This document shows, piece by piece, positions 12,166-28,373 of a DNA stretch of 64,000 nucleotides. Each line of letters begins with the position of its first letter. Within the stretch, counting starts at the first letter, position 1. The DNA comes from Escherichia coli (GTDB taxonomy: Bacteria > Pseudomonadota > Gammaproteobacteria > Enterobacterales > Enterobacteriaceae), in assembly GCF_003334355.1 (NCBI RefSeq), contig NZ_QOWP01000015.1; one strand, 5' to 3'. The notes under the pieces are model-generated. The model searched no databases and was not told where the DNA came from. It saw only the letters and a program-made list of their open reading frames with translations. Both the position numbers and the translations under genes were made by a program.

Positions 12166-14328
12166 TTATACCGTCTCCAGCCGGGCGTAAGCCGCCACCA
12201 GCCATTTGATTCCCTGGCCCTGGAACGCCACCTGCAAACGGCTATGTTCACCGCTGCCTTCCATATTGACGATGGTGCCTTCACCAAACTTAGCGTGGCG
12301 TACACGCTGGCCGAGCTTGTAGCCGCTGTCGTTCTCGACCATCGGCGTACCCATACGCTGATGGCTGACCGGGCGGCTTACCGTGGCGCGCAGGCGCACC
12401 TCTTCCACACACTCTTCCGGCAACTCACCGATAAAGCGCGACGGGCGATGGTAAACCTCTTTGCCATACAGACGGCGAGTTTCCGCGTAGGTCAGCGTCA
12501 GTTTCTGCATCGCACGGGTTACGCCAACGTAGGCCAGACGGCGTTCTTCTTCCAGACGACCGCCTTCATCCAGCGACATCTGGCTTGGGAACATGCCCTC
12601 TTCCATACCGACGATAAACACCTGCGGGAACTCCAGCCCTTTCGCCGAGTGCAGCGTCATCAACTGCACCGCGTCCTGCCAGGTATCCGCCTGCCCCTCG
12701 CCCGCTTCCAGCGCCGCATGGGAGAGGAATGCCTGCAGCGGCATTAAATCTTCGTCTTCTTCGTTGTAGCTGAACTGGCGCGTTGCCGTCACCAGTTCCT
12801 CCAGGTTTTCGATACGCGTCTGACCTTTTTCGCCCTTCTCCTGCTCGTACATGGTGCGCAGGCCGGAGTCTTTAATTACCCGGTCAGTCTGTACATGCAG
12901 CGGCATATCGGCAGTTTCTTGCGCTAAGGCGTCGATTAATTCCATAAATCGCTGCAAGGCGCTGGCAGCTCGCCCGGCGAGGGCTTTTTCCTGCAACAGC
13001 TCACGACATGCCTGCCAGAGTGTTAACTGGCGATCGCGCGATGTCTGACGTACCACGTCCAGCGTCCGGTCACCAATACCCCGCGTTGGCGTATTCACCA
13101 CACGCTCAAAGGCCGCGTCGTCGTTGCGGTTGGCAATCAGGCGCAGATACGAGAGCGCATCTTTGATTTCCTGGCGTTCGAAGAAGCGCATCCCGCCGTA
13201 AATACGGTACGGCATACTGGCCTGCAATAACGCCTCTTCGAGCACCCGCGACTGGGCGTTGCTGCGGTAGAGAATGGCGCACTCGGCAAGCGCTCCGCCG
13301 TTGTCCTGCCAGGTTTTGATGCGGTTAACCACAAAACGCGCTTCATCGAGTTCGTTAAAAGCGCAATAGAGGGAAATAGGCTCACCGTCCGCGCCATCGG
13401 TCCACAGTTTTTTACCCAGACGCCCGTTATTGTTTTCAATCAGGGCGTTAGCGGCGCTCAGAATATTGCTGGTAGAGCGGTAGTTTTGCTCCAGACGAAT
13501 AGTTTCGGCACCGGGGAAATCATTAAGGAAACGCTGAATATTCTCCACCTGCGCCCCGCGCCAGCCGTAGATTGACTGGTCGTCATCACCGACGATCATC
13601 ACTTTGCCGGTGTCGCCCGCCAGCAGGCGGATCCACGCGTACTGAATGTTGTTGGTATCCTGGAATTCGTCCACCAGGATATTGGTAAAACGTTCGCGGT
13701 AGTGTTGCAGGATATGCGGCTTGTTAAGCCACAACTCGTGAGCGCGCAGCAGCAGCTCGGCGAAGTCCACCAGGCCCGCGCGGTCACACGCTTCCTGATA
13801 CGCCTGATACACCTTCTGCCAGGTCTGCTCCACCGGATTACCGTAGCTTTGAATATGATGCGGACGCAGGCCTTCATCTTTCTGGCTGTTGATGTACCAC
13901 ATTGCCTGCCGCGGCGGCCACTGCTTCTCGTCGAGGTTCATGGCTTTGATCAGACGCTTAAGCAGGCGTAGCTGGTCTTCACTGTCGAGGATCTGGAAAT
14001 CCTGCGGCAGATTGGCGTCCATATGGTGCGCACGCAGCAAACGGTGCGCCAGCCCGTGGAAGGTGCCGACCCACATACCGCCCTGGCTCGTGCCCATCAG
14101 TTGCCCGATACGATGACGCATCTCCGCCGCCGCTTTGTTGGTAAACGTCACCGCCATAATCGAGTATGGCGAGCAGTTTTCCACGCTCATCAACCAGGCG
14201 ATACGATGCACCAGTACGCGCGTCTTACCACTGCCCGCGCCCGCCAGCACCAGAAGGTTGCTGCGTGGCGCGGCCACCGCTTCGCGCTGTTTGTCATTAA
14301 GGCTGTCGAGCAGGTAAGAAACGTCCAT
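12166..14328 (-). CDS. uvrD: DNA helicase II UvrD
   Basis: ORF trimmed to 720 aa starting MDVSYLLDSLNDKQREAV; Walker [13 protein letters not shown]1 helicase motifs. Confidence 0.9.
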   Translation of the reverse strand: MDVSYLLDSLNDKQREAVAAPRSNLLVLAGAGSGKTRVLVHRIAWLMSVENCSPYSIMAVTFTNKAAAEMRHRIGQLMGTSQGGMWVGTFHGLAHRLLRAHHMDANLPQDFQILDSEDQLRLLKRLIKAMNLDEKQWPPRQAMWYINSQKDEGLRPHHIQSYGNPVEQTWQKVYQAYQEACDRAGLVDFAELLLRAHELWLNKPHILQHYRERFTNILVDEFQDTNNIQYAWIRLLAGDTGKVMIVGDDDQSIYGWRGAQVENIQRFLNDFPGAETIRLEQNYRSTSNILSAANALIENNNGRLGKKLWTDGADGEPISLYCAFNELDEARFVVNRIKTWQDNGGALAECAILYRSNAQSRVLEEALLQASMPYRIYGGMRFFERQEIKDALSYLRLIANRNDDAAFERVVNTPTRGIGDRTLDVVRQTSRDRQLTLWQACRELLQEKALAGRAASALQRFMELIDALAQETADMPLHVQTDRVIKDSGLRTMYEQEKGEKGQTRIENLEELVTATRQFSYNEEDEDLMPLQAFLSHAALEAGEGQADTWQDAVQLMTLHSAKGLEFPQVFIVGMEEGMFPSQMSLDEGGRLEEERRLAYVGVTRAMQKLTLTYAETRRLYGKEVYHRPSRFIGELPEECVEEVRLRATVSRPVSHQRMGTPMVENDSGYKLGQRVRHAKFGEGTIVNMEGSGEHSRLQVAFQGQGIKWLVAAYARLETV

Positions 14329-14386
14329 TGGCACCGCCGCGTAAAAATAGGTTGGGCGGAGAAGCGCAACGCCCTCCGCCAAAAAG

Positions 14387-14402
14387 CTGGGTATATATAC
14401 AG
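14387..14402 (-). promoter_or_regulatory. LexA (SOS) box upstream of uvrD
   Basis: Minus-strand CTGTATATATACCCAG (CTGT-N8-CCAG) about 60 nt upstream of uvrD start. Confidence 0.7.
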
Positions 14403-14411
14403 ATTTGCTGA

Positions 14412-15128
14412 TTATATCAGCGAGGTCAGAGATGCCAACCGGGAAATTTCCAGATGCGGCAGTAAACGGCTGTCCCAGGTTTGCATCAGATCGCCATTTT
14501 CCGGTCTGATCCAACAAGCCTGCATTCCGCTGCGAATTGCCCCACCCACGTCAGTGGTGAGATCGTCCCCAACATGTAAGATCTCGCCGATCGGCACGTT
14601 GAGTTTTTCCGCAGCCAAAAAGTACATATCGCTGAACGGTTTTGAGCGCCCGTGCGGGCCAGCGCGCAGCACAAACTCAAAATAATCCCCCAAACCAAAC
14701 AGCTCCGGCTGGGCGTTACCGTTGGTGATCGCCACCAGCGGCCATTTCTTCGCCAGCTGTTTTAAGGTGTCGTGAGTTTGCTGCGGGACGTCGATTCGGC
14801 TGCGCCATTTGGCAAAGTTGATCATTGCTGCGTGTGCGCCTGCACTGGCTTCTTCGGCACTCAGCCCGGCGTCGAGCATCGCTTGTTCAATCGAACGAAA
14901 ACGCCAGCGCGTCACGTCGTGATAAATCTCGGGTTCCGCTTCCCGTACCGCCTGGCGCAGGCGTTGCAGATCTTCATTCTGGAAGCTGCGCAGCGCCGGA
15001 TGATAATTTTGCACAAAGGTAAGCGCCTCTCGCTCGGTGCGCAAAATCACCGGACGGTTATCGTAAAGGGTATCATCCAGGTCAAAGGTGAGCGCCGAGA
15101 TGCGCCCCAAAGGCCGGTAAAAACGCAT
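14412..15128 (-). CDS. yigB: HAD-family phosphatase YigB
   Basis: 238-aa ORF with HAD motif I ([11 protein letters not shown]); last gene of dapF-yigA-xerC-yigB block. Confidence 0.8.
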
Positions 15129-16024
15129 TATTTCCCCCGTTTGGCGCGTGGATGCGCCGCATCGTACACCGAGGCAAGGTGTTGAAAATCAAGATGAGTA
15201 TAGATTTGCGTGGTGGAGAGGTTGGCATGACCCAGCAGCTCCTGCACACCACGAAGATCGCCGCTCGACTCCAGCATATGCGTGGCGAACGAGTGACGTA
15301 ATTTATGCGGATGAACGTGATTATTCAGCCCTTGTTTTATGCCCCATTCGGCAAAGCGTTTCTGCACATTACGCGCGGAGATACGCTTGCCCAGTTTCGA
15401 CAGAAAAAGCGCGTCGTCTTCGCTACCAAACAGGTCGCGCAAATCAAGCCAGTGCTCAATCCACGCCACAGCGTTGCGACCAATCGGCAGGCGGCGCTCT
15501 TTGCTGCCTTTCCCCATAACCCACACTTCACCAGACTCCAGGTCGAGGTGTTTAATATCCAGCCCCACCAGCTCAGAAAGACGCAGACCCGCGCCGTACA
15601 TCACTTCCAGCATTGCACGGTCGCGTACAGCGAGGGGATCATTGATATCAATATCCAGCAGCCGATTCATATCGTCGACGTCGATGTTTTTCGGCAGATG
15701 ACGCGGCGCTTTCGGTGCCGAAACACCTTTCGCCGGGTTAGCTTTGAGTTCGTTCTGGCTGACCAGCCAGTCAAAAAAGCTACGTAGCGCAGAAAGCCGT
15801 AACGCCAGACTTGCTGCTCCCAGCCCTTTACGGCGACTGCGTACAGCAAAATTGCGCACCATCGTCACATCACATTGCTGCCAGCTTTGCAGGCCGTTTT
15901 CGCTGGCAAAATTGATGATCGCCTCAAGCTGACGCTGGTAGTTAAGCAGGGTTATCGGGCTAAGCTGGCGCTCCACGCTCAGATAACGTAGGTAGCGTTC
16001 TACATCGGTGTGTAAATCGGTCAT
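15128..16024 (-). CDS. xerC: site-specific tyrosine recombinase XerC
   Basis: 298 aa; C-terminal catalytic R-H-R-Y region ([27 protein letters not shown]). Confidence 0.9.
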
Positions 16025-16728
16025 ACGCGTTCAATCCAACGCTCCAGAAGCTCCGGCAACATCAGCGCAATTTCATGAAGTAACTGCGTTCCTTGCCCTT
16101 GTTGATAGTGACTGGCATCGCGACTGGTAAACAGCACGACACCCAAATCAGCATCGCTTCCCAGCATCGACATCGCCACCGATCCCACCGCTTTCGCTTC
16201 CGGTAGCACCACCAGCAGCTCTGGTCCGTTAAGCGGCCCAAGATAGTGCTGTTCCTGCCCCAAACGCTGAATACGCAGCGGTTCGAAAGACTGACGGCTT
16301 AATGCCAGATGAGTGTGGTTCGACGGCGCACCTAAGCGCCAGCGATCCGGAAACAGGCGCAGACTCGCACCTGCCAGGCCGAGATCGCGCGCCCAGCGGT
16401 GAAAGCGCATCAGCATATCGTCGAGACTGCTGGCGGCGGTGAGACTGCGCTGCAGGTAGAGTAGGCGATAAAACAGGCCTTCGTTGGCGATAGCCTGTTC
16501 CATCAACAGCGCCATGTTCTCTTCCAGAACATGAATATGATTACGTGCGCGGGCCATGTGCCACTCGACCAACGAAACGGTGCCGCGTACCGGATGCGGC
16601 ACACGTATCGCTTCTACTGCGCGCGCATTACGGATAAAAAACTCAGGATTTTTAATCAGATAATCGACAACCGCCCGGTCATCAAGCTCCGTGAGTGTTT
16701 CCTGCAGTTCTTCCCCTGGTTGCTTCAT
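16021..16728 (-). CDS. yigA: DUF484-family protein YigA
   Basis: 235-aa ORF overlapping xerC start by 4 nt and dapF stop by 4 nt. Confidence 0.8.
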
Positions 16729-17549
16729 AGATGAATAAATCCGTCGTAGACATGTACCGCCGGGCCAGTCATATATAACGGGTGACCCGGACCTTTCCAG
16801 GCGATATCAAGACGACCGCCGGGGAGTTCCACGCGTACTTCTTCGGCCAGCAAACCTTGCTGAATCCCTACTGCAACCGCCGCACACGCGCCGCTGCCGC
16901 AGGCCTGGGTTTCTCCTGCCCCACGCTCATAAACGCGTAAACGAATATGCTCGCGCTTAACCACTTGCATAAAACCGATATTGGCGCGCTCCGGAAAACG
17001 CTCGTGGCTTTCCAGAACAGGACCAAGCGTTTCTACCGCCGCGGTATCGACATCATCGACCTGAATCACGCAATGCGGATTTCCCATCGACACCACGCCG
17101 CATAAGATTGTCTGCTCGGCGGCGCGCATAATATAGGTCTTTTCCGCTTTGTTAGCGCGAAACGACACGGCGGAAGGTTCGAAGTTGGGTTCGCCCATAT
17201 TTACGCGGACCAGATCATCATCGGTGACGGTCAGAACCATCCGCCCGTTGGCGGTGCTGACGCGGATATCACGCTTATTGGTCAGTCCTTTCAGACGCAC
17301 AAAACGGGCAAAGCAGCGCGCACCGTTGCCGCACTGCGCCACTTCACTGCCATCAGCATTGAAAATGCGATAGTGAAAATCCAGTTCAGGATCATACGGC
17401 GGCTCAACCACCAGCAGTTGGTCAAACCCTACCCCCAGGTGCCGATCAGCCAGGCGACGAATCAGCTCCGGTGAAAAAAAGACATTCTGCGTTACCGCGT
17501 CGACGACCATAAAATCGTTGCCAAGGCCATGCATTTTCGAGAACTGCAT
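16725..17549 (-). CDS. dapF: diaminopimelate epimerase
   Basis: 274 aa from [17 protein letters not shown]; catalytic Cys motifs (CGNGARC, CGSGACA). Confidence 0.9.
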
Positions 17550-17585
17550 CATTTACTCCAATCACGCGGGTACAGAAACTGACTT

Positions 17586-17789
17586 TTAGTAATTCACCTG
17601 GGATGGACCATCGCCAGTGGCGCGATCGTTTTTATCCGGCACCGTGGATTGCGTTTGCGTCTCTACCGGTTTGGTCGGCGGCGGTGCGTTTTTATCTGCA
17701 GGCGGGAAATAGAGCGGACCTTTCAGACCGCAGCCCGTCAGGCTGAAGAGAGTAAGTAATACAGTGAGTGCCTTAAACACGTTTTTCAT
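17586..17789 (-). CDS. lptM: small lipoprotein LptM (YifL)
   Basis: 67-aa ORF with signal peptide and lipobox LTGC. Confidence 0.8.
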   Translation of the reverse strand: MKNVFKALTVLLTLFSLTGCGLKGPLYFPPADKNAPPPTKPVETQTQSTVPDKNDRATGDGPSQVNY

Positions 17790-18251
17790 TATGGATTGCC
17801 TGTAAAGTTCATCGCTTTCTGCTTTCTATCATCGCAGGAGAAGACGTAAAAGCAAGCGTTTAGCGACTCTTTATGAAGTCTGAAAAGTGAGGAAATGCTG
17901 CGAGTATAACGCTTACTCGTGGGGATTTATGTTTTGCTGGTAGTTTCGTGATCGGCACCTCGCGCCAGGATGGCTTTATGCACTATCGCAATGTGGTTTG
18001 TTTGTTGTCTTTTTTAGTTCCGTCAGCGTGAGGATGCTCGCTCGGTAAACCTGATCATAATGTTTACCAGAAACAGGGAAAGACGTGGTGTAACTGCGCC
18101 CTAATGAAGAGACAAATCTTTCGCTACACAGAGACATCATTATTCCGGTGACGGATGAATCGTGCCGGAACGCAGCCGCAGAGGTGCAAACTTTGAAGCC
18201 CTGACCCCATGCCGCTATACTGCCGCCATCACTTAAAAACAGGATACAACA

Positions 18252-18572
18252 ATGAACGACAGTGAATTTCATCGCCTGGCTGATCAACTCTGGCTGACCA
18301 TTGAAGAACGCCTGGACGACTGGGATGGCGACAGCGATATCGACTGCGAAATCAACGGCGGCGTACTGACCATTACCTTTGAGAATGGCAGCAAAATCAT
18401 TATCAACCGCCAGGAGCCGCTGCACCAGGTATGGCTGGCAACCAAACAGGGCGGCTACCATTTTGACCTGAAAGGCGATGAGTGGATTTGTGATCGCAGC
18501 GGCGAAACCTTCTGGGATTTGCTGGAACAGGCGGCGACGCAGCAGGCGGGTGAAACAGTCAGTTTCCGCTAA
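18252..18572 (+). CDS. cyaY: frataxin homolog CyaY
   Basis: 106-aa acidic [32 protein letters not shown]. Confidence 0.9.
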
Positions 18573-18611: not shown

Positions 18612-21158
18612 TCACGAAAAATATTGCTGTAATAGCGGCGTATCGTGATCCTGATTGGCAGGCGGCATGTTACCGATAGATTTTGTGCGGAACGGAATCA
18701 CCTGTTCACGACCATCAACCTTCACAATCTGATAGAACTGCGGCAGGTTGAAGTTGATGAAGCTTGAGCCGTAGGTAAAACGGTCATGCGATGACGAGTA
18801 GAAGCGACTGACGTCACGTACCAGCTCCTCTTTGCTGCCTTCGCAGTGGTGATATACCTCAACCCGGTTGCTTTCGTCGAGAATGTAGATATTAAAGCCA
18901 TTCTCGTCTTGCGTTTCTTCGAAAAAGAACTGGATGATCCCTTCGCTGGCAAAGCCGTCCACCACCGCCGGTAATTTGACGTGATTGGTTTCAACCTGCA
19001 CTGACAGGCCGTGCAGTTTGTTATGCGAAATCGCGCCATAAAACTCGATGGCGTTTTCCAGTTTCTGTACCGATACATTCAGGCGTTCGAAGAACAACCC
19101 CCAGGTTTGACCAGAAACGCGCAGCGCCTTGAAACGCCCGGTTTCCTGGCGGGTGCTGGAAAGACGCAATTCAATACACTCAGAAACCAGTTGCTGCACG
19201 CGAGTACGAATTAAGCCGCGCAGATGCTGGCTATAACAGAAGACTTCCACGCTATCTGGCGGTGCGGCGTCCTGATGCATTTTGCCGAGAATAGTTTTCA
19301 GGGCTTCGATCATCGATTGCTCGCCGTTGAAGTGCAGCGTACGCACTTCGTTCCACGAGTTGCGGTACAGCAGGTCAACGCTACCTACCAGGCAATTTTG
19401 ATTCTCGCCAAAGCTGAAGACATCCAGCTTACGGAAATCGAAATGCACCACCTGATTGCGGAACGCCGCTGTCGGGTCATATTCCAGGTTAACGATAATC
19501 GCCAGATGGCGGATCTCACACGGGCTGTAGAGCGCCTTCGGTGTCGGTGCAGGTAAGCGCAGCGGGAAATGGTGCGACACGTCGGCGACCATCTCCTGCA
19601 ACTTAGGCAAATCGACAATGCCGTTACCTTTAATATACAAACGGGTGCGCGAGGTCAGCAGGCCGTTAAACCATGCCCACGCCACCAGTTTATTCAGGTA
19701 ACGGTTATATTCCAGCGGCTGATGGCTGATGATCGACTCAATATTTGGCGCGCGGTTATACAGATACCAACCTGAACGGTTAGCCCGGCCCGGCGGCACA
19801 TAAATAAAGGTCAGATTCGGTTCCGAGAGATCGGGTGAAATCTGCGGGTTTACCAGCGTCACTTTACCTGGTAATGCTTCAAACGCGGCATACAGCTTAC
19901 GCGTCAGCACGCCGATATCCTGCGGACTGGCGGAGACGCTAAGGTTATTGCGACGCGCAAAGCGGATCAGATTACGGTAGCTCTGCATCATCGCGTCGAG
20001 CAACTCGTTGTGCGCCTCACGCACCTGATCAATCTTCCAGTTAGCGCGGTTATCGAGCATTGCCAGACGAGCTTCGTCCCAACCCCACTCGCTCACTAAC
20101 TGGCTCAACACTGCGCGACGCCAGCCTACGCAGGCGCGTTCACGGCTGAGCTTTTCGCACACTTTTAAATAGAAGCAGCGACGTACTAAATCCAGACGGG
20201 TAAAATCTTCAATCGCCGTCAGGTATTCAGTAACACGCTCCAGCATCATGCAGTATGGATCGAGACCAAACGATACAATCTCGCCGTCGTGCAAACGCTG
20301 TTTGATATCTTTCGCCAGCAGACGTGGGTTCGGGTATTCCCAGGAATAGGCTTCCAGCAGCAGTGTTTTCAGTACCGCTTTGTATGGGGAATCGATACTC
20401 TTGTAGAGCTGCCAAAGGCTGGCACCAAAGTACTCTTCAGCAGAAAGCGAGCTTAAGCCACCGAGATCCAGCCATTCATTTGGCGTCAGCACGCCCTGCG
20501 CGTAAAGCGTCATCACATAGTCGTCGTAATGCTCTTCTTCGTCGCACGGCACCATATTCCACAGAATACGCTTACCGGCGAGACGCACGGCGGTACGATA
20601 AAATTCGTCAAGCAGCAGTATATGCTGGGTGGAGCCACAATCTTCGCCCCCCAGGCTGCCGCTTTCATTATGACGGAAGCGGTTTTCATCAATCAGGAAG
20701 AAGCTGACTTCCACACCCAGCGAGGCGGCCCAGTTTTCCAGCAGGCTACATTTACGTTGTAGCAATTGGCGCTCTTCGCTATCGAGCCAGGATTGATGAC
20801 AGACCCAGATATCCAGGTCAGAGGAACAACTTTGCCCTACGGACGAGGTGCTGCCCATGGTGTATACACCAGTAATTGGAAGCTCACCTTTCGGCGGATC
20901 CTGTACTGACATTCCACGATACAGTTCAAGCTCGTTCAGGTAGTGGCGTTGAGTTTCATCAGGCGTGTAAAGGCAAATGCCTTTGGGAACGTTACCATCA
21001 AGGTAACCCGGCATTAGCGGATGGTGATAGTGCAACAATGTCGGCAGTAGACTGTAGACCTGTTGGAATGCAGGCCCCATAGCAGCAAGCGCGCGATCCA
21101 CACGCAATTGATTTATGGCATCCAGTCTCTGTTTCAGAGTCTCAATATAGAGGTACAA
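18612..21158 (-). CDS. cyaA: class I adenylate cyclase
   Basis: 848-aa ORF; initiation codon at 21156-21158 is TTG on the coding strand. Confidence 0.9.
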
Positions 21159-25678: not shown

Positions 25679-25885
25679 AAAAAAACGCCTGCTCTTATTA
25701 CGGAGCAGGCGTTAAAACAGGTCTGTATGACAACAAGTGGGTGCTTCACTCAACGTTGTGTCCATGGTGTCTGATGAGGCATAAGCGACATCTGTCAGTG
25801 GACGATAAGCACCGTAAACGGCTCTGCGTCATTCCGGAGTTTATGAGGCACTAAGGCGAACATAAGAGATGGAATGAGCATCTAC
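25679..25885 (-). ncRNA. glmZ: GlmZ small RNA (activator of glmS translation)
   Basis: Minus strand reads GTAGATGCTCATTCCATCTCTTATGTTCGCCTTAGTGCC...GCCTGCTCCGTAATAAGAGCAGGCGTTTTTTT with terminal hairpin and U-run; matches recalled GlmZ sequence. Confidence 0.85.
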
Positions 25886-26309: not shown

Positions 26310-26471
26310 ATGGAAATTTCGTTTTCACCCAAACGTCTTGTTGTTGCTGTCGCCGCCGCTCTTCCTCTCATGGCCAGCGCAGCAGATACCCCGTCAACTG
26401 CCACCGCACGCAAAGGCTTTGCCGGATACGATCACCCAAACCAGTATCCACAGAACGCTGCAATTTATTGA
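26310..26471 (+). pseudogene. aslA: truncated arylsulfatase aslA remnant (signal-peptide region only, about 53 codons)
   Basis: ATG at 26310 encodes [53 protein letters not shown] then stop; spacing from glmZ 5' end matches the expected aslA start, but the ORF ends about 1.5 kb short of a full sulfatase. Confidence 0.6.
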
Positions 26472-26485
26472 ATTTGCACGATCAT

Positions 26486-26520
<35 letters not shown>

Positions 26521-26554
26521 ATCAACCGCAGGCGGCCACAAAATGGCCGCTTTT

Positions 26555-27790
26555 TTACTTACTCACCACCAGCAAATGCGCATGCATAATGTCACTGGCC
26601 GGGCGACCGTGCGCCAGCAAATCAGCCATTGCTTTAAGATATGGCGGTAGATGGCGGAAATAACGCTGATACCCGGCACACAAATAATTCAGCCCCGGTT
26701 TGCCTCTGGCATCGAGCATGAAGCGGTGTTTCGGGCAGCCTCCCCAGCACGCTTTTAACACGTTACAACTGCGACACTGCGCCGGTAATTGCTTAAATTT
26801 ATCTTCACCAAACGCCTGCTGTTGCGGGGAATCGATCATTTCTGCAATTGTTTGCTGGTGCATATTCCCCAGCCGATATTGTGGATAAACATAGTGATCG
26901 CAGGCGTAAACGTCGCCGTTGTGCTCAACAATCACCGAGCGCCCACAGGTTGGCTGATGATGGCAAACCGCACCCGGCGCACCGACAAAATTGGCAAACG
27001 CCCATTCGATATTCATCACGAAAATCTTGCCGACGTCGCGTTTAATCCAGTGGTCGAATATCGCCACCAGAAATTCACCGAACTCCTCGGGGCGCACCGA
27101 CCATTCCGTTAGCTCACCCTGAATATCACCAGGCGCATGCAATTTCAGTCCTTCGCGGGCAGCCATTTCATCAGCCAGGCGCTCGACCACCGGAATAAAC
27201 TGGATGAATTCCACTCCCGCATCGCACAAAAAATCATATACCTGCAACGGTTGCTGCGCGCTGGTGCGATTAACGCAGACCAGCACGTTATAGTCGACAT
27301 GATGTTTTTGCAGCAGCGTCAGGGCACGCATCACCAGCTTATGCGTGGGTCTGCCACCTTTAGTCACGCGATATTGATTGTGGATCTCAGGCGGACCATC
27401 CAGCGATAAACCAACAAGAAAATGATGCTCCGCGAGAAACGCGCACCATTCGTCATCCAGCAGCACGCCGTTAGTCTGGAAGCTGTTACTTATCTTCCTG
27501 CCAGCACCATATTTCGCCTGTAGCGCTACGGCACGGCGGTAAAACTCCAGCCCGAGTAGCGTTGGTTCGCCGCCCTGCCAGGTAAAAGCCACTTCGTTTT
27601 GCAGTTCGCTGGCGGCGATATAGTGACGGATATACGCTTCCAGCGTGTCATCGTCCATATGCGTGACTGGCTTTTCGCGGTAAAGGGATTGTTTTTCGAG
27701 ATAAAAACAGTAGTCACAGTTCAGATTACAATCGGAACCACTCGGTTTCGCCATCACATGAAAAGCACGCGTTGGAACCTGTTGCAGCAT
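26555..27790 (-). CDS. aslB: radical-SAM anaerobic sulfatase-maturating enzyme homolog
   Basis: 411 aa from MLQQVPTRAFHVMAKPSGSDCNLNCDYCFY (CxxxCxxC radical-SAM motif); ORF-track start 27820 is an upstream in-frame alternative. Confidence 0.85.
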   Translation of the reverse strand: MLQQVPTRAFHVMAKPSGSDCNLNCDYCFYLEKQSLYREKPVTHMDDDTLEAYIRHYIAASELQNEVAFTWQGGEPTLLGLEFYRRAVALQAKYGAGRKISNSFQTNGVLLDDEWCAFLAEHHFLVGLSLDGPPEIHNQYRVTKGGRPTHKLVMRALTLLQKHHVDYNVLVCVNRTSAQQPLQVYDFLCDAGVEFIQFIPVVERLADEMAAREGLKLHAPGDIQGELTEWSVRPEEFGEFLVAIFDHWIKRDVGKIFVMNIEWAFANFVGAPGAVCHHQPTCGRSVIVEHNGDVYACDHYVYPQYRLGNMHQQTIAEMIDSPQQQAFGEDKFKQLPAQCRSCNVLKACWGGCPKHRFMLDARGKPGLNYLCAGYQRYFRHLPPYLKAMADLLAHGRPASDIMHAHLLVVSK

Positions 27791-27900
27791 GGTCACTCCT
27801 TGCCTGAAGTCATCCTTCAATACGTTAAGGGCGAAATCATACCGTGGGGCAATGAGTTATTACGGGCGTTTATTGCGAAGGGAGGGTGACGAAATGCACA

Positions 27901-27930
27901 GAAAACAAAAAACCCCGCCGAAGCGGGGTT
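27901..27930 (-). terminator. rho-independent terminator of the argX-hisR-leuT-proM tRNA operon
   Basis: 8-bp stem aaccccgc/gcggggtt with cgaa loop, followed on minus strand by tttttgtttt. Confidence 0.65.
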
Positions 27931-27936
27931 CAAAAT

Positions 27937-28013
27937 TGGTCGGCGAGAGAGGATTCGAACCTCCGACCCACTGGTCCCAAACCAGTTGCGCTACCAAGCT
28001 GCGCTACTCGCCG
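27937..28013 (-). tRNA. proM: tRNA-Pro
   Basis: Reverse complement reads CGGCGAGTAGCGCAGCTTGGTAGCGCAACTGGTTTGGGACCAGTGGGTCGGAGGTTCGAATCCTCTCTCGCCGACCA. Confidence 0.9.
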
Positions 28014-28054
28014 AAATACTGCTTTTTGAATTTTTAGTTCAATTCTTTAAAGTC

Positions 28055-28141
28055 GTGGTGCGAGGGGGGGGACTTGAACCCCCACGTCCGTAAGGACACT
28101 AACACCTGAAGCTAGCGCGTCTACCAATTCCGCCACCTTCG
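28055..28141 (-). tRNA. leuT: tRNA-Leu (CAG)
   Basis: Reverse complement reads GCGAAGGTGGCGGAATTGGTAGACGCGCTAGCTTCAGGTGTTAG...CCCCCCCCTCGCACCA (87 nt, long variable arm). Confidence 0.9.
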
Positions 28142-28161
28142 CATTGTCACAACTTCTAATA

Positions 28162-28238
28162 ATGGGGTGGCTAATGGGATTCGAACCCACGACAACTGGA
28201 ATCACAATCCAGGGCTCTACCAACTGAGCTATAGCCAC
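28162..28238 (-). tRNA. hisR: tRNA-His
   Basis: Reverse complement reads GGTGGCTATAGCTCAGTTGGTAGAGCCCTGGATTGTGATTCCAGTTGTCGTGGGTTCGAATCCCATTAGCCACCCCA. Confidence 0.9.
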
Positions 28239-28296
28239 CACTACAAATCTTGTTACGCGGTATTACTACCACCGCAGCTCAAGCGCCGGGACTAAA

Positions 28297-28373
<77 letters not shown>

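Follow-up and report, generated by a model that had tools for sequence, protein, structure and literature searches.

Gene layout, probable translational coupling and neighbourhood of the DUF484 gene yigA between dapF and xerC in Escherichia coli

The window analysed here is a stretch of 64,000 nucleotides of Escherichia coli DNA, and the genes discussed below all lie on its minus strand. The small lipoprotein gene lptM (yifL; 17586..17789) is an open reading frame of 67 residues, annotated in RefSeq as the LPS translocon maturation chaperone LptM. It lies upstream of dapF, from which it is separated by a gap of 36 nt, and is probably the first cistron of a transcript shared with dapF. The dapF gene (16725..17549) encodes diaminopimelate epimerase (346.5 bits on TIGR00652, cut-off 114.65); its open reading frame opens with ATGATG at 17552, and the second ATG is the RefSeq start. 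It is followed by yigA (16021..16728), which encodes a 235-residue DUF484 protein according to its open reading frame and family profiles, and by xerC (15128..16024), which encodes a tyrosine recombinase. The xerC product scores 370.3 bits on TIGR02224 (cut-off 335.15) and 281.2 on the XerD model, under the cut-off of 329.6 of the latter. Next comes yigB (14412..15128), which encodes a HAD-family (HAD-IA) phosphatase of ARAPDP/FMN. Downstream of yigB, uvrD (12166..14328, RefSeq annotation) is a separate, LexA-controlled transcription unit.

Over this locus the sequence matches that of E. coli K-12 with 100% identity, and the locus is found in 5,426 of the 5,426 complete genomes of E. coli that were searched. 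RefSeq coordinates on the identical K-12 sequence agree with our calls for dapF, yigA, xerC, and yigB. A Rfam scan of the whole window gives no match within 14-18 kb, and a consensus scan of the minus strand between the genes detects neither a sigma-70-like promoter beyond chance nor a terminator-like site. We take (lptM)-dapF-yigA-xerC-yigB to be a housekeeping operon, all cistrons of which would be carried on a single transcript ending at the uvrD control region; alternatively, internal promoters may be present inside the operon. The operon has been given in the literature as yifL dapF yigA xerC yigB (PMC11376589).

From dapF to yigB, each gene overlaps the next. The TGA stop codon of dapF and the ATG of yigA share 4 nt in the sequence ATGA (16725..16728; ...CATCTATGAAG), the stop codon of yigA and the start codon of xerC likewise share the 4 nt of an ATGA (16021..16024; ...GCGTATGACC), and the TAA of xerC and the ATG of yigB share 1 nt in TAATG (15128..15128; ...GAAATAATGCG). 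Read directly, the junctions confirm that the four genes lie end to end with overlaps of 4, 4, and 1 nt, as the sequence-only reading of this DNA had claimed. To put these overlaps in context, we use the annotation of the window's first 50 kb, which has 32 adjacent same-strand CDS pairs. Nine of the 32 pairs overlap (by 1, 4 or 23 nt), and three of the nine belong to dapF-yigA-xerC-yigB. The six other overlapping pairs sit in the hem and wec/rff operons. Because 6/29 (21%) of the other same-strand pairs overlap too, such overlaps are ordinary for tight operons. At this locus the overlaps exist and probably have a function, yet they are no commoner than expected for operons.

The calculated Shine-Dalgarno duplex energies are -5.9 kcal/mol for dapF, -3.3 kcal/mol for yigA, -3.1 kcal/mol for xerC, -8.6 kcal/mol for yigB, and -8.2 kcal/mol for uvrD, compared with -2.1 +/- 2.5 kcal/mol at random positions. 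The dapF gene has its own Shine-Dalgarno sequence GGAG, and yigB has a strong one, GGGGGA. The energies of yigA and xerC are near the null, and neither gene has a usable Shine-Dalgarno sequence. Accordingly, of two features expected of translational coupling, an overlapping or abutting stop and start codon is present at all three junctions (ATGA, ATGA, and TAATG), whereas the lack of a ribosome-binding site in the downstream gene applies to yigA and xerC but not to yigB. Judging from these signals, ribosomes that finish the upstream gene would most likely restart at the ATGA overlaps, so that yigA and xerC would be translated by termination-reinitiation. The output of YigA and XerC would then be tied to dapF translation and would step down along the operon. 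Alternatively, weak internal ribosome-binding sites may serve yigA and xerC. In addition, a genomic SELEX table (PMC8743547) lists an NtrC/RpoN site as intragenic and lying between yigA and xerC. We considered a sigma-54 promoter for xerC within yigA and rejected it, as positions 14300-17900 contain no TGGCAC-N5-TTGCA-like site.

The best match of the consensus scan (11/12) is the promoter-like site of uvrD (14411..14438), in which the sigma-70 elements TTGGCA and TATAAT are spaced by 16 nt. The LexA box of uvrD, CTGTATATATACCCAG (14387..14402), which matches CTG-N10-CAG, starts 9 nt past the yigB stop codon, just after the -10 hexamer. It had been proposed that both elements lie immediately downstream of yigB. 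This is correct for the LexA box, but the promoter is not strictly downstream, because its -35 element TTGGCA is positioned within yigB and its -10 element TATAAT overlaps the TAA stop codon of yigB. The uvrD leader contains a G+C-rich hairpin, GGCGGAG...CTCCGCC, followed by a run of T (14343..14380). This hairpin, presumably the attenuator of the uvrD literature, could halt read-through from yigB. The fold of 14326-14400, from which it is taken, has a minimum free energy of -20.7 kcal/mol, no better than that of shuffled sequences (z -0.22).

The description of yigB as uncharacterised does not hold. Its product scores 494.8 bits on NF008018 (cut-off 225), the NCBIfam name of which is 5-amino-6-(5-phospho-D-ribitylamino)uracil phosphatase YigB, and the ARAPDP and FMN phosphatase activities of YigB have been published and serve as a positive control (PMC12051542). 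Within the riboflavin pathway, YigB is known as a promiscuous HAD phosphatase. The position of its gene in the operon is not conserved: among 98 loci from 19 sequence clusters, yigB is present in only some lineages or is set off by 1-3.3 kb of unrelated genes. Searches of defence-system and phage libraries with YigA and YigB return no match. Textbooks or databases already cover the operon and its overlaps, as well as the uvrD control region and the YigB enzyme, and the locus is a rediscovery. A multicistronic unit dapF-orf235-xerC-orf238, described reportedly around 1988-1990 by Richaud and Printz and by Colloms et al., is the identical locus, with the same four genes and overlaps and no difference from the sequence analysed here.

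YigA is a DUF484 protein of unrecorded role, in agreement with the sequence-only reading. Residues 11-233 align with positions 2-219 of the 219 of Pfam PF04340 (DUF484) with an E value of 4.7e-90, and the protein scores 407.6 bits on NF008203 (PRK10963; cut-off 254). No function for YigA is found in the databases and literature searched, where "yigA" mainly matches an author surname and "DUF484" mainly matches DUF484x numbers. Present in 5,426 of 5,426 genomes, YigA belongs to the small set of core proteins of E. coli for which a homologue has been solved but no function assigned.

The protein comprises a conserved N-terminal motif (residues ~17-62), a long helix (residues 53-97), and a GAF domain (residues ~100-230). 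The helix and the GAF fold are both present in the predicted structure (pLDDT 91.2, pTM 0.74), the top structural match of which is 3E98, followed by generic GAF domains. In PDB searches with the YigA sequence and the family profile, 3E98 and weak GAF matches are the only results. YigA has the three-dimensional fold of a GAF domain and, like 3E98, combines it with a helix. At the level of sequence, E. coli YigA matches DUF484 only and gives no match to Pfam GAF, GAF_2 or GAF_3 even at E <= 10; a weak GAF_2 match is obtained with some homologues. The 3E98 entry, a "GAF domain of unknown function" (DUF484) from structural genomics in 2008, is PA5279 of Pseudomonas aeruginosa, which shares the YigA-like fold at ~26% identity. 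Since neither a function nor a ligand has been assigned to it, it offers no explanation of YigA. From the GAF domains of PtsP (EI-Ntr; 3TRC, 3CI6) and from other stand-alone or N-terminal GAF sensors (NifA, NlhH, fRMsr/YebR, and CodY), YigA differs by its DUF484-specific N-terminal motif and long helix, and by having no attached output domain, no cysteine, and no match to Pfam GAF.

YigA, with a pI of 6.06, is a cytoplasmic, mildly acidic protein without an enzymatic or DNA-binding output domain. Cysteine occurs in at most 28 sequences at any column of the 71-sequence alignment. We considered that YigA might be a free methionine-R-sulfoxide reductase (YebR/MsrC), a GAF-fold enzyme, but the catalytic cysteines are absent; fRMsr-type chemistry is therefore excluded. 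In a Salmonella PNK assay, YigA shows no RNA binding (PMC6511874). By resemblance of the predicted fold, the long helix probably makes a dimer, and YigA would most likely bind a small molecule and act via contact with another protein.

To describe the gene neighbourhood of yigA, we use the same 98 loci and 19 clusters, all of which are reachable by single-sequence search from E. coli YigA, with ~700 more distant family representatives lying outside the sample. All 19 of the 19 clusters have dapF immediately upstream of yigA, and 14 retain the ATGA overlap between the two genes. The xerC gene is directly downstream of yigA in 18 clusters (E. coli and 17 others read dapF-DUF484-xerC), at a junction that ranges from -20 to +287 nt. 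With xerC in this position in 18/19 clusters, yigA is not frequently unlinked from it, and the placement of yigA directly before xerC, proposed from the E. coli sequence, extends to nearly the whole sample. In the remaining cluster, with 34 loci from Colwellia and Cognaticolwellia, dapF-yigA is retained and the locus has no xerC, the order in Colwellia being dapF-yigA-yigB-uvrD. Gaps of 18-223 nt take the place of the dapF/yigA overlap in Colwelliaceae. In addition, lysA often precedes dapF in the block. The identity of YigA within the sampled lineages goes down to 18%. The dapF-yigA-xerC block is ancient and hardly varies; it ranks among the most stable gene blocks in the sample, and dapF is a more constant neighbour of yigA than xerC.

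A collection scan with a narrower YigA alignment finds only Alteromonadales and Chromatiales-type genomes, and a YigA profile search for taxonomic breadth finds Enterobacterales only. In a search of plasmids for a yigA-xerC pair without dapF, DUF484 occurs in 21 of 72,556 records. Among the matches listed, these records are megabase-sized and chromosome-like, or also carry dapF and usually xerC. DUF484 has no PHROG match in phages. An apparent DapF::DUF484 fusion (P0260, at locus L097) is rejected as a 1-nt frameshift near the end of dapF, probably an assembly error, because reading in the +1 frame restores the usual end of DapF, ...AYRGEVEW*, with a TGATG start behind it. A garbled yigA-xerC "fusion" (P0201) looks like a similar artefact.

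Taken together, a housekeeping operon in which yigA and xerC are translationally coupled is in our judgement quite probably the best explanation of the locus. The sequence-only reading took the tight coupling as a hint at a functional link between YigA and XerC. This hint is borne out in part: xerC adjoins yigA in 18/19 clusters, but dapF is tied to yigA no less closely. Therefore, synteny does not single out XerC. An interaction prediction for YigA with XerC, of the kind suggested as a check, gives no sign of an interface. AlphaFold2 modelling of a YigA-(G4S)6-XerC single-chain fusion, a crude test with shallow pairing (17 paired rows) and without PAE, DNA, XerD or a YigA dimer, returns a pTM of 0.46. 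The N-terminal confidence of YigA is not raised, the first five 10-residue blocks scoring 44/68/87/82/56 in the fusion and 51/78/92/86/70 alone. As to the role of YigA, we hold a part in dimer resolution with XerC to be rather unlikely, and a part in diaminopimelate or cell-wall precursor metabolism with DapF to be rather unlikely as well, and give roughly even chances to a role with neither or to an unknown one.

It is possible, and we say so tentatively, that YigA has no direct link to either neighbour, that the block is kept by hard-to-separate overlaps and steady low co-expression, and that the target of YigA is encoded elsewhere. No functional tie is known between dapF and xerC, which nevertheless occur together in 18/19 clusters; synteny at this locus therefore does not require shared function. 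Overlaps are also present in unrelated operons of the window, and the fusion model contains no XerC interface signal. Moreover, YigA (mean pairwise identity 0.30, compared with 0.59 for DapF and 0.48 for XerC) evolves at roughly double the rate of its neighbours. However, the three-gene order is kept over deep divergence, with YigA identity as low as noted above, which is unusual for unrelated genes, and yigA and xerC remain adjacent even where, as is often the case, they do not overlap.

A role of YigA as accessory factor or regulator for XerC, in which it would hold XerC inactive, load it or tune XerC-first strand exchange and the ATGA coupling would fix the ratio of the two proteins, appears improbable to us. 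The position of xerC directly 3' of yigA in nearly all clusters is consistent with such a role, as is the absence of a Shine-Dalgarno sequence from E. coli xerC, which would make it dependent on yigA translation. The divergence of YigA tracks that of XerC slightly better than that of DapF (Spearman 0.56 and 0.38, respectively, in 15 lineages), a weak correlation confounded by phylogeny; we do not use such mirror-tree-style comparison as evidence, as it is too weak and too phylogeny-confounded. The variable yigA/xerC junction, the Colwelliaceae with yigA and no xerC at the locus, and the fusion model, in which the pTM is low and the N-terminal confidence of YigA falls, argue against this role. 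So does the absence of DUF484 from true plasmids and phages, which are rich in Xer sites and tyrosine recombinases. In accordance, XerCD-dif recombination has reportedly been reconstituted from purified XerC, XerD, and FtsK, and the genes reported from the classical xer screens are xerA-D (argR, pepA, xerC, and xerD), whereas yigA is not known to have come out of them. Accessory factors already described for Xer (the FtsK gamma domain, PepA, ArgR, ArcA, and phage XafT) have a hypothesised XerC/XerD role alone in common with YigA and are unrelated to it in sequence and fold. The genotype of the cloning strain DH10B, as quoted in PMC7657623, includes a yigA nonsense mutation, which also counts against a role with XerC. 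Regulation of XerC by YigA, if it took place, would give this well-studied recombination system a further level of control that is new.

Doubtful, too, is the proposal that YigA works with DapF or in the diaminopimelate, lysine or peptidoglycan-precursor pathway, for example as a GAF metabolite sensor that modulates DapF, with xerC as a passenger. In vitro, DapF needs no partner for activity, dapF occurs without DUF484 in many bacteria, the dapF/yigA overlap is gone in Colwelliaceae, and the sole DapF::DUF484 fused open reading frame is the frameshift described above. The proposal accords with the invariant dapF neighbour, with the ATGA overlap in 14/19 clusters, including loci where hslVU stands beside xerC, with the frequent lysA ahead of dapF, and with the Colwelliaceae, which retain dapF-yigA after loss of xerC from the locus. 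The invariant dapF, the conserved overlap, and the xerC-less Colwellia loci make it a fairer framing to consider DapF alongside XerC. It is very unlikely that YigA is a metabolite-sensing GAF adaptor connecting the diaminopimelate step of DapF and cell-wall precursor supply to XerC activity, an arrangement that would gate dimer resolution, or XerC-first recombination of plasmids and integrating phages, by envelope or growth state and would account for the persistence of the dapF-yigA-xerC order across deeply divergent lineages.

Three loci (L089, L090, and L097), which we take to be betaproteobacterial from their hslVU-ubiE-ubiB synteny, read dapF-DUF484-xerC-hslV-hslU. In Bacillus subtilis, codV-clpQ-clpY-codY places an XerC-like recombinase gene beside hslV/hslU-type protease genes and a GAF-domain gene. 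The three loci resemble this arrangement in bringing together an XerC-like gene, hslV/hslU-type genes, and a gene for a GAF-domain protein.

The genes dapF (16725–17549), yigA (16021–16728), xerC (15128–16024), and yigB (14412–15128) follow lptM (17586–17789) and precede uvrD (12166–14328), all on the minus strand. DapF and YigB match the families TIGR00652 and NF008018, respectively, and XerC scores above the cut-off of TIGR02224, while the XerD model stays below its own cut-off. YigA matches PRK10963, annotated as 'hypothetical protein', and Pfam DUF484 (E 4.7e-90). From 14.3 to 17.9 kb the sequence matches E. coli K-12 MG1655 at 100% identity, and a search of 5,426 complete E. coli genomes finds it in every one. 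Outside this stretch, identity of the window to MG1655 is ~99.3%, so the DNA derives from a different E. coli strain, one with a deletion in aslA. The dapF–yigA–xerC–yigB locus is already known, and its packing is ordinary operon architecture. The original operon descriptions reportedly date from 1988–1990. The operon is listed as yifL-dapF-yigA-xerC-yigB in a study of fitness in bacteraemia, where the scored gene was xerC (PMC11376589).

The sequence-only reading described overlapping stop and start codons throughout, and reading of the sequence confirms ATGA at dapF/yigA, ATGA at yigA/xerC, and TAATG at xerC/yigB. Over the window's first 50 kb, nine of the 32 same-strand neighbour pairs overlap, six of the nine belonging to the hem and wec/rff operons. 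The overlaps in dapF–yigA–xerC–yigB are real yet not unusual. The uvrD LexA box, said to lie immediately downstream of yigB, does so: CTGTATATATACCCAG begins 9 nt past the yigB stop. The best uvrD promoter match has its -35 within yigB and its -10 TATAAT spanning the yigB stop codon. This -10 (14411–14416) is partly made of the stop TAA (14414–14412), and bases at the end of the yigB operon also belong to the uvrD promoter. The uvrD leader, 3′ of the LexA box and promoter region, contains a G+C-rich hairpin and a T-run, presumably an attenuator.

Shine-Dalgarno strength was computed as pairing energy with the 16S rRNA anti-Shine-Dalgarno, with random positions in the window as the null (-2.1 ± 2.5 kcal/mol). 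Ribosome-binding sites are present for dapF (-5.9 kcal/mol), yigB (-8.6 kcal/mol), and uvrD (-8.2 kcal/mol), whereas yigA (-3.3 kcal/mol) and xerC (-3.1 kcal/mol) are near the random level, which argues that translation of the latter two probably needs ribosomes from the upstream gene. The weak Shine-Dalgarno sequences together with the overlaps suggest that yigA and xerC are probably translationally coupled: ribosomes that finish the upstream gene would reinitiate at the ATG overlapping its stop codon. For yigB, independent translation can occur as well. The dapF ORF opens with a tandem ATGATG (17549–17552), the second ATG being the RefSeq start; its GGAG Shine-Dalgarno lies 5 nt from the first ATG and 8 nt from the second. 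Promoter- and terminator-like sites between the operon genes are not above the shuffled-sequence level. A scan for sigma-54-like sites finds none, although an NtrC/RpoN site placed between yigA and xerC appears in a table from genomic SELEX (PMC8743547).

The gene neighbourhood of yigA was compared across 98 DUF484 loci, annotated with E. coli DapF, YigA, XerC, YigB, and UvrD as queries. The sample comprises 80 loci found by a single scan of a genome collection (Colwellia, Cognaticolwellia, Rheinheimera, Pseudidiomarina, Idiomarina, Shewanella, Paraglaciecola, and Arsukibacterium), 17 retrieved via 11 distant representatives of the family, and E. coli, and it forms 19 clusters at 60% YigA identity. 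In all 19 clusters, dapF lies directly upstream of yigA on the same strand, and 14 keep the 4-nt ATGA overlap. The gene directly downstream is xerC in 18 clusters, with a junction spanning -20 to +287 nt. Because the xerC linkage is conserved, the frequent separation of the two genes that was named as evidence against a functional link is not seen. The exception consists of 34 Colwellia and Cognaticolwellia loci arranged dapF–yigA–yigB–uvrD (e.g. L002, L004, L008, L012, L016, L017, L019, L022, and L025). These 10-kb loci contain no recombinase gene on either strand. Gaps of 18–223 nt replace their dapF/yigA overlap.

Upstream of the block, lptM and lysA recur, and hslV–hslU recur 3′ of xerC in loci that we take to be betaproteobacterial. 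L089 (4174–8593), L090, and L097 read dapF–DUF484–xerC–hslV–hslU–ubiE. They place a XerC-type recombinase gene by hslVU and a GAF-protein gene, like the B. subtilis operon codV-clpQ-clpY-codY; the likeness may be coincidental. An apparent 515-aa DapF::DUF484 fusion (P0260, L097 4001–5548), from a twelfth family representative left out of the count, is rejected: a 1-nt shift disrupts the frame within the final ~10 dapF codons, and reading on in the +1 frame recovers a regular DapF C-terminus followed by a TGATG junction.

The interaction was modelled as a single chain, YigA-(G4S)6-XerC, from an alignment of 17 paired rows (same loci) and 44 YigA-only rows. Both halves are well folded, the pTM of 0.46 is at the level of two independent bodies, and confidence at the YigA N-terminus is lower than for YigA alone. 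The model, with shallow pairing and containing neither DNA, XerD, nor a YigA dimer, lends a YigA–XerC interface no support and is a weak negative. The functional link hinted at by the sequence-only reading is partly supported. It keeps the conserved xerC linkage in its favour, but yigA is joined more constantly and more tightly to dapF, and the interaction model does not back the link. For YigA, a role with XerC and a role with DapF and the diaminopimelate pathway are equally probable, each rather unlikely by itself, and a role with neither takes the remaining probability.

YigA evolves at about twice the rate of its neighbours (mean pairwise identity 0.30 vs 0.59 for DapF and 0.48 for XerC). 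Its most conserved residues lie outside the GAF domain, in the N-terminal motif YL...P(D/E)FF......L..PH...G.(V/I)SL(V/I)E.Q...LR. L53 is invariant, L24, F30, F31, S52, and R62 are at least 90% conserved, and N82, G164, S183, and G196 are conserved further along. YigA is mildly acidic (pI 6.06) and lacks an output domain. It also lacks cysteine, which excludes fRMsr-type chemistry. Judged from the fold, YigA is most simply read as an adaptor, probably dimeric, that would bind a small molecule and work via protein contacts. Searches of phage and defence libraries with YigA give zero matches, and in Salmonella it is a verified non-RNA-binding control (PMC6511874). The literature searched gives YigA no function; it reports a small expression change after 5-azacytidine, a yigA mutation in an evolved line, a fitness effect on muskmelon (placed without evidence under 'ribosomal homeostasis'), and a yigA nonsense mutation in the DH10B genotype (PMC7657623).

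YigB had also been called uncharacterised, wrongly: its NCBIfam name is 5-amino-6-(5-phospho-D-ribitylamino)uracil phosphatase. E. coli YigB is the positive control for this activity in a 2025 paper, according to which it also dephosphorylates FMN and its deletion causes no riboflavin auxotrophy (PMC12051542). Among the loci sampled, the operon position of yigB is not conserved, and the gene is absent there in many lineages. In Rheinheimera-type loci, 1–3.3 kb of unrelated genes part xerC from yigB; in these and related loci they encode a LysR-family regulator, an HvfX/DoxX-like protein, and a periplasmic substrate-binding protein (L018 6573–8294; L014 6549–7491).

DUF484 is essentially absent from plasmids (21 of 72,556 records). 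Among the matches listed, the records are megabase-sized and chromosome-like, or also carry dapF, usually with xerC. Several PLSDB records of ~90–140 kb (H12, H13, and H16–H19), labelled as plasmids of E. coli, Salmonella, Citrobacter, and Enterobacter, contain the chromosomal dapF–yigA–xerC block; these are likely pieces of chromosome deposited under a plasmid label, or else plasmids that acquired large chromosomal segments.

The RefSeq annotation has a DKNYY-family gene fragment with a frameshift between lptM and cyaY (17948–18126, plus strand). A 161-aa ORF (17976–18461, minus strand) overlaps it, antisense to cyaY, and is probably spurious. The cyaA ORF (18612–21158, minus strand) has a TTG start in the mechanical ORF list, with the coordinates of the RefSeq CDS. 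Compared with MG1655, ~1.58 kb within aslA (26443–28021 of the MG1655 comparison sequence, L100) is absent from the window at ~26449, and the deletion point sits between GlmZ (25679–25885) and a tRNA cluster (27940–28373).
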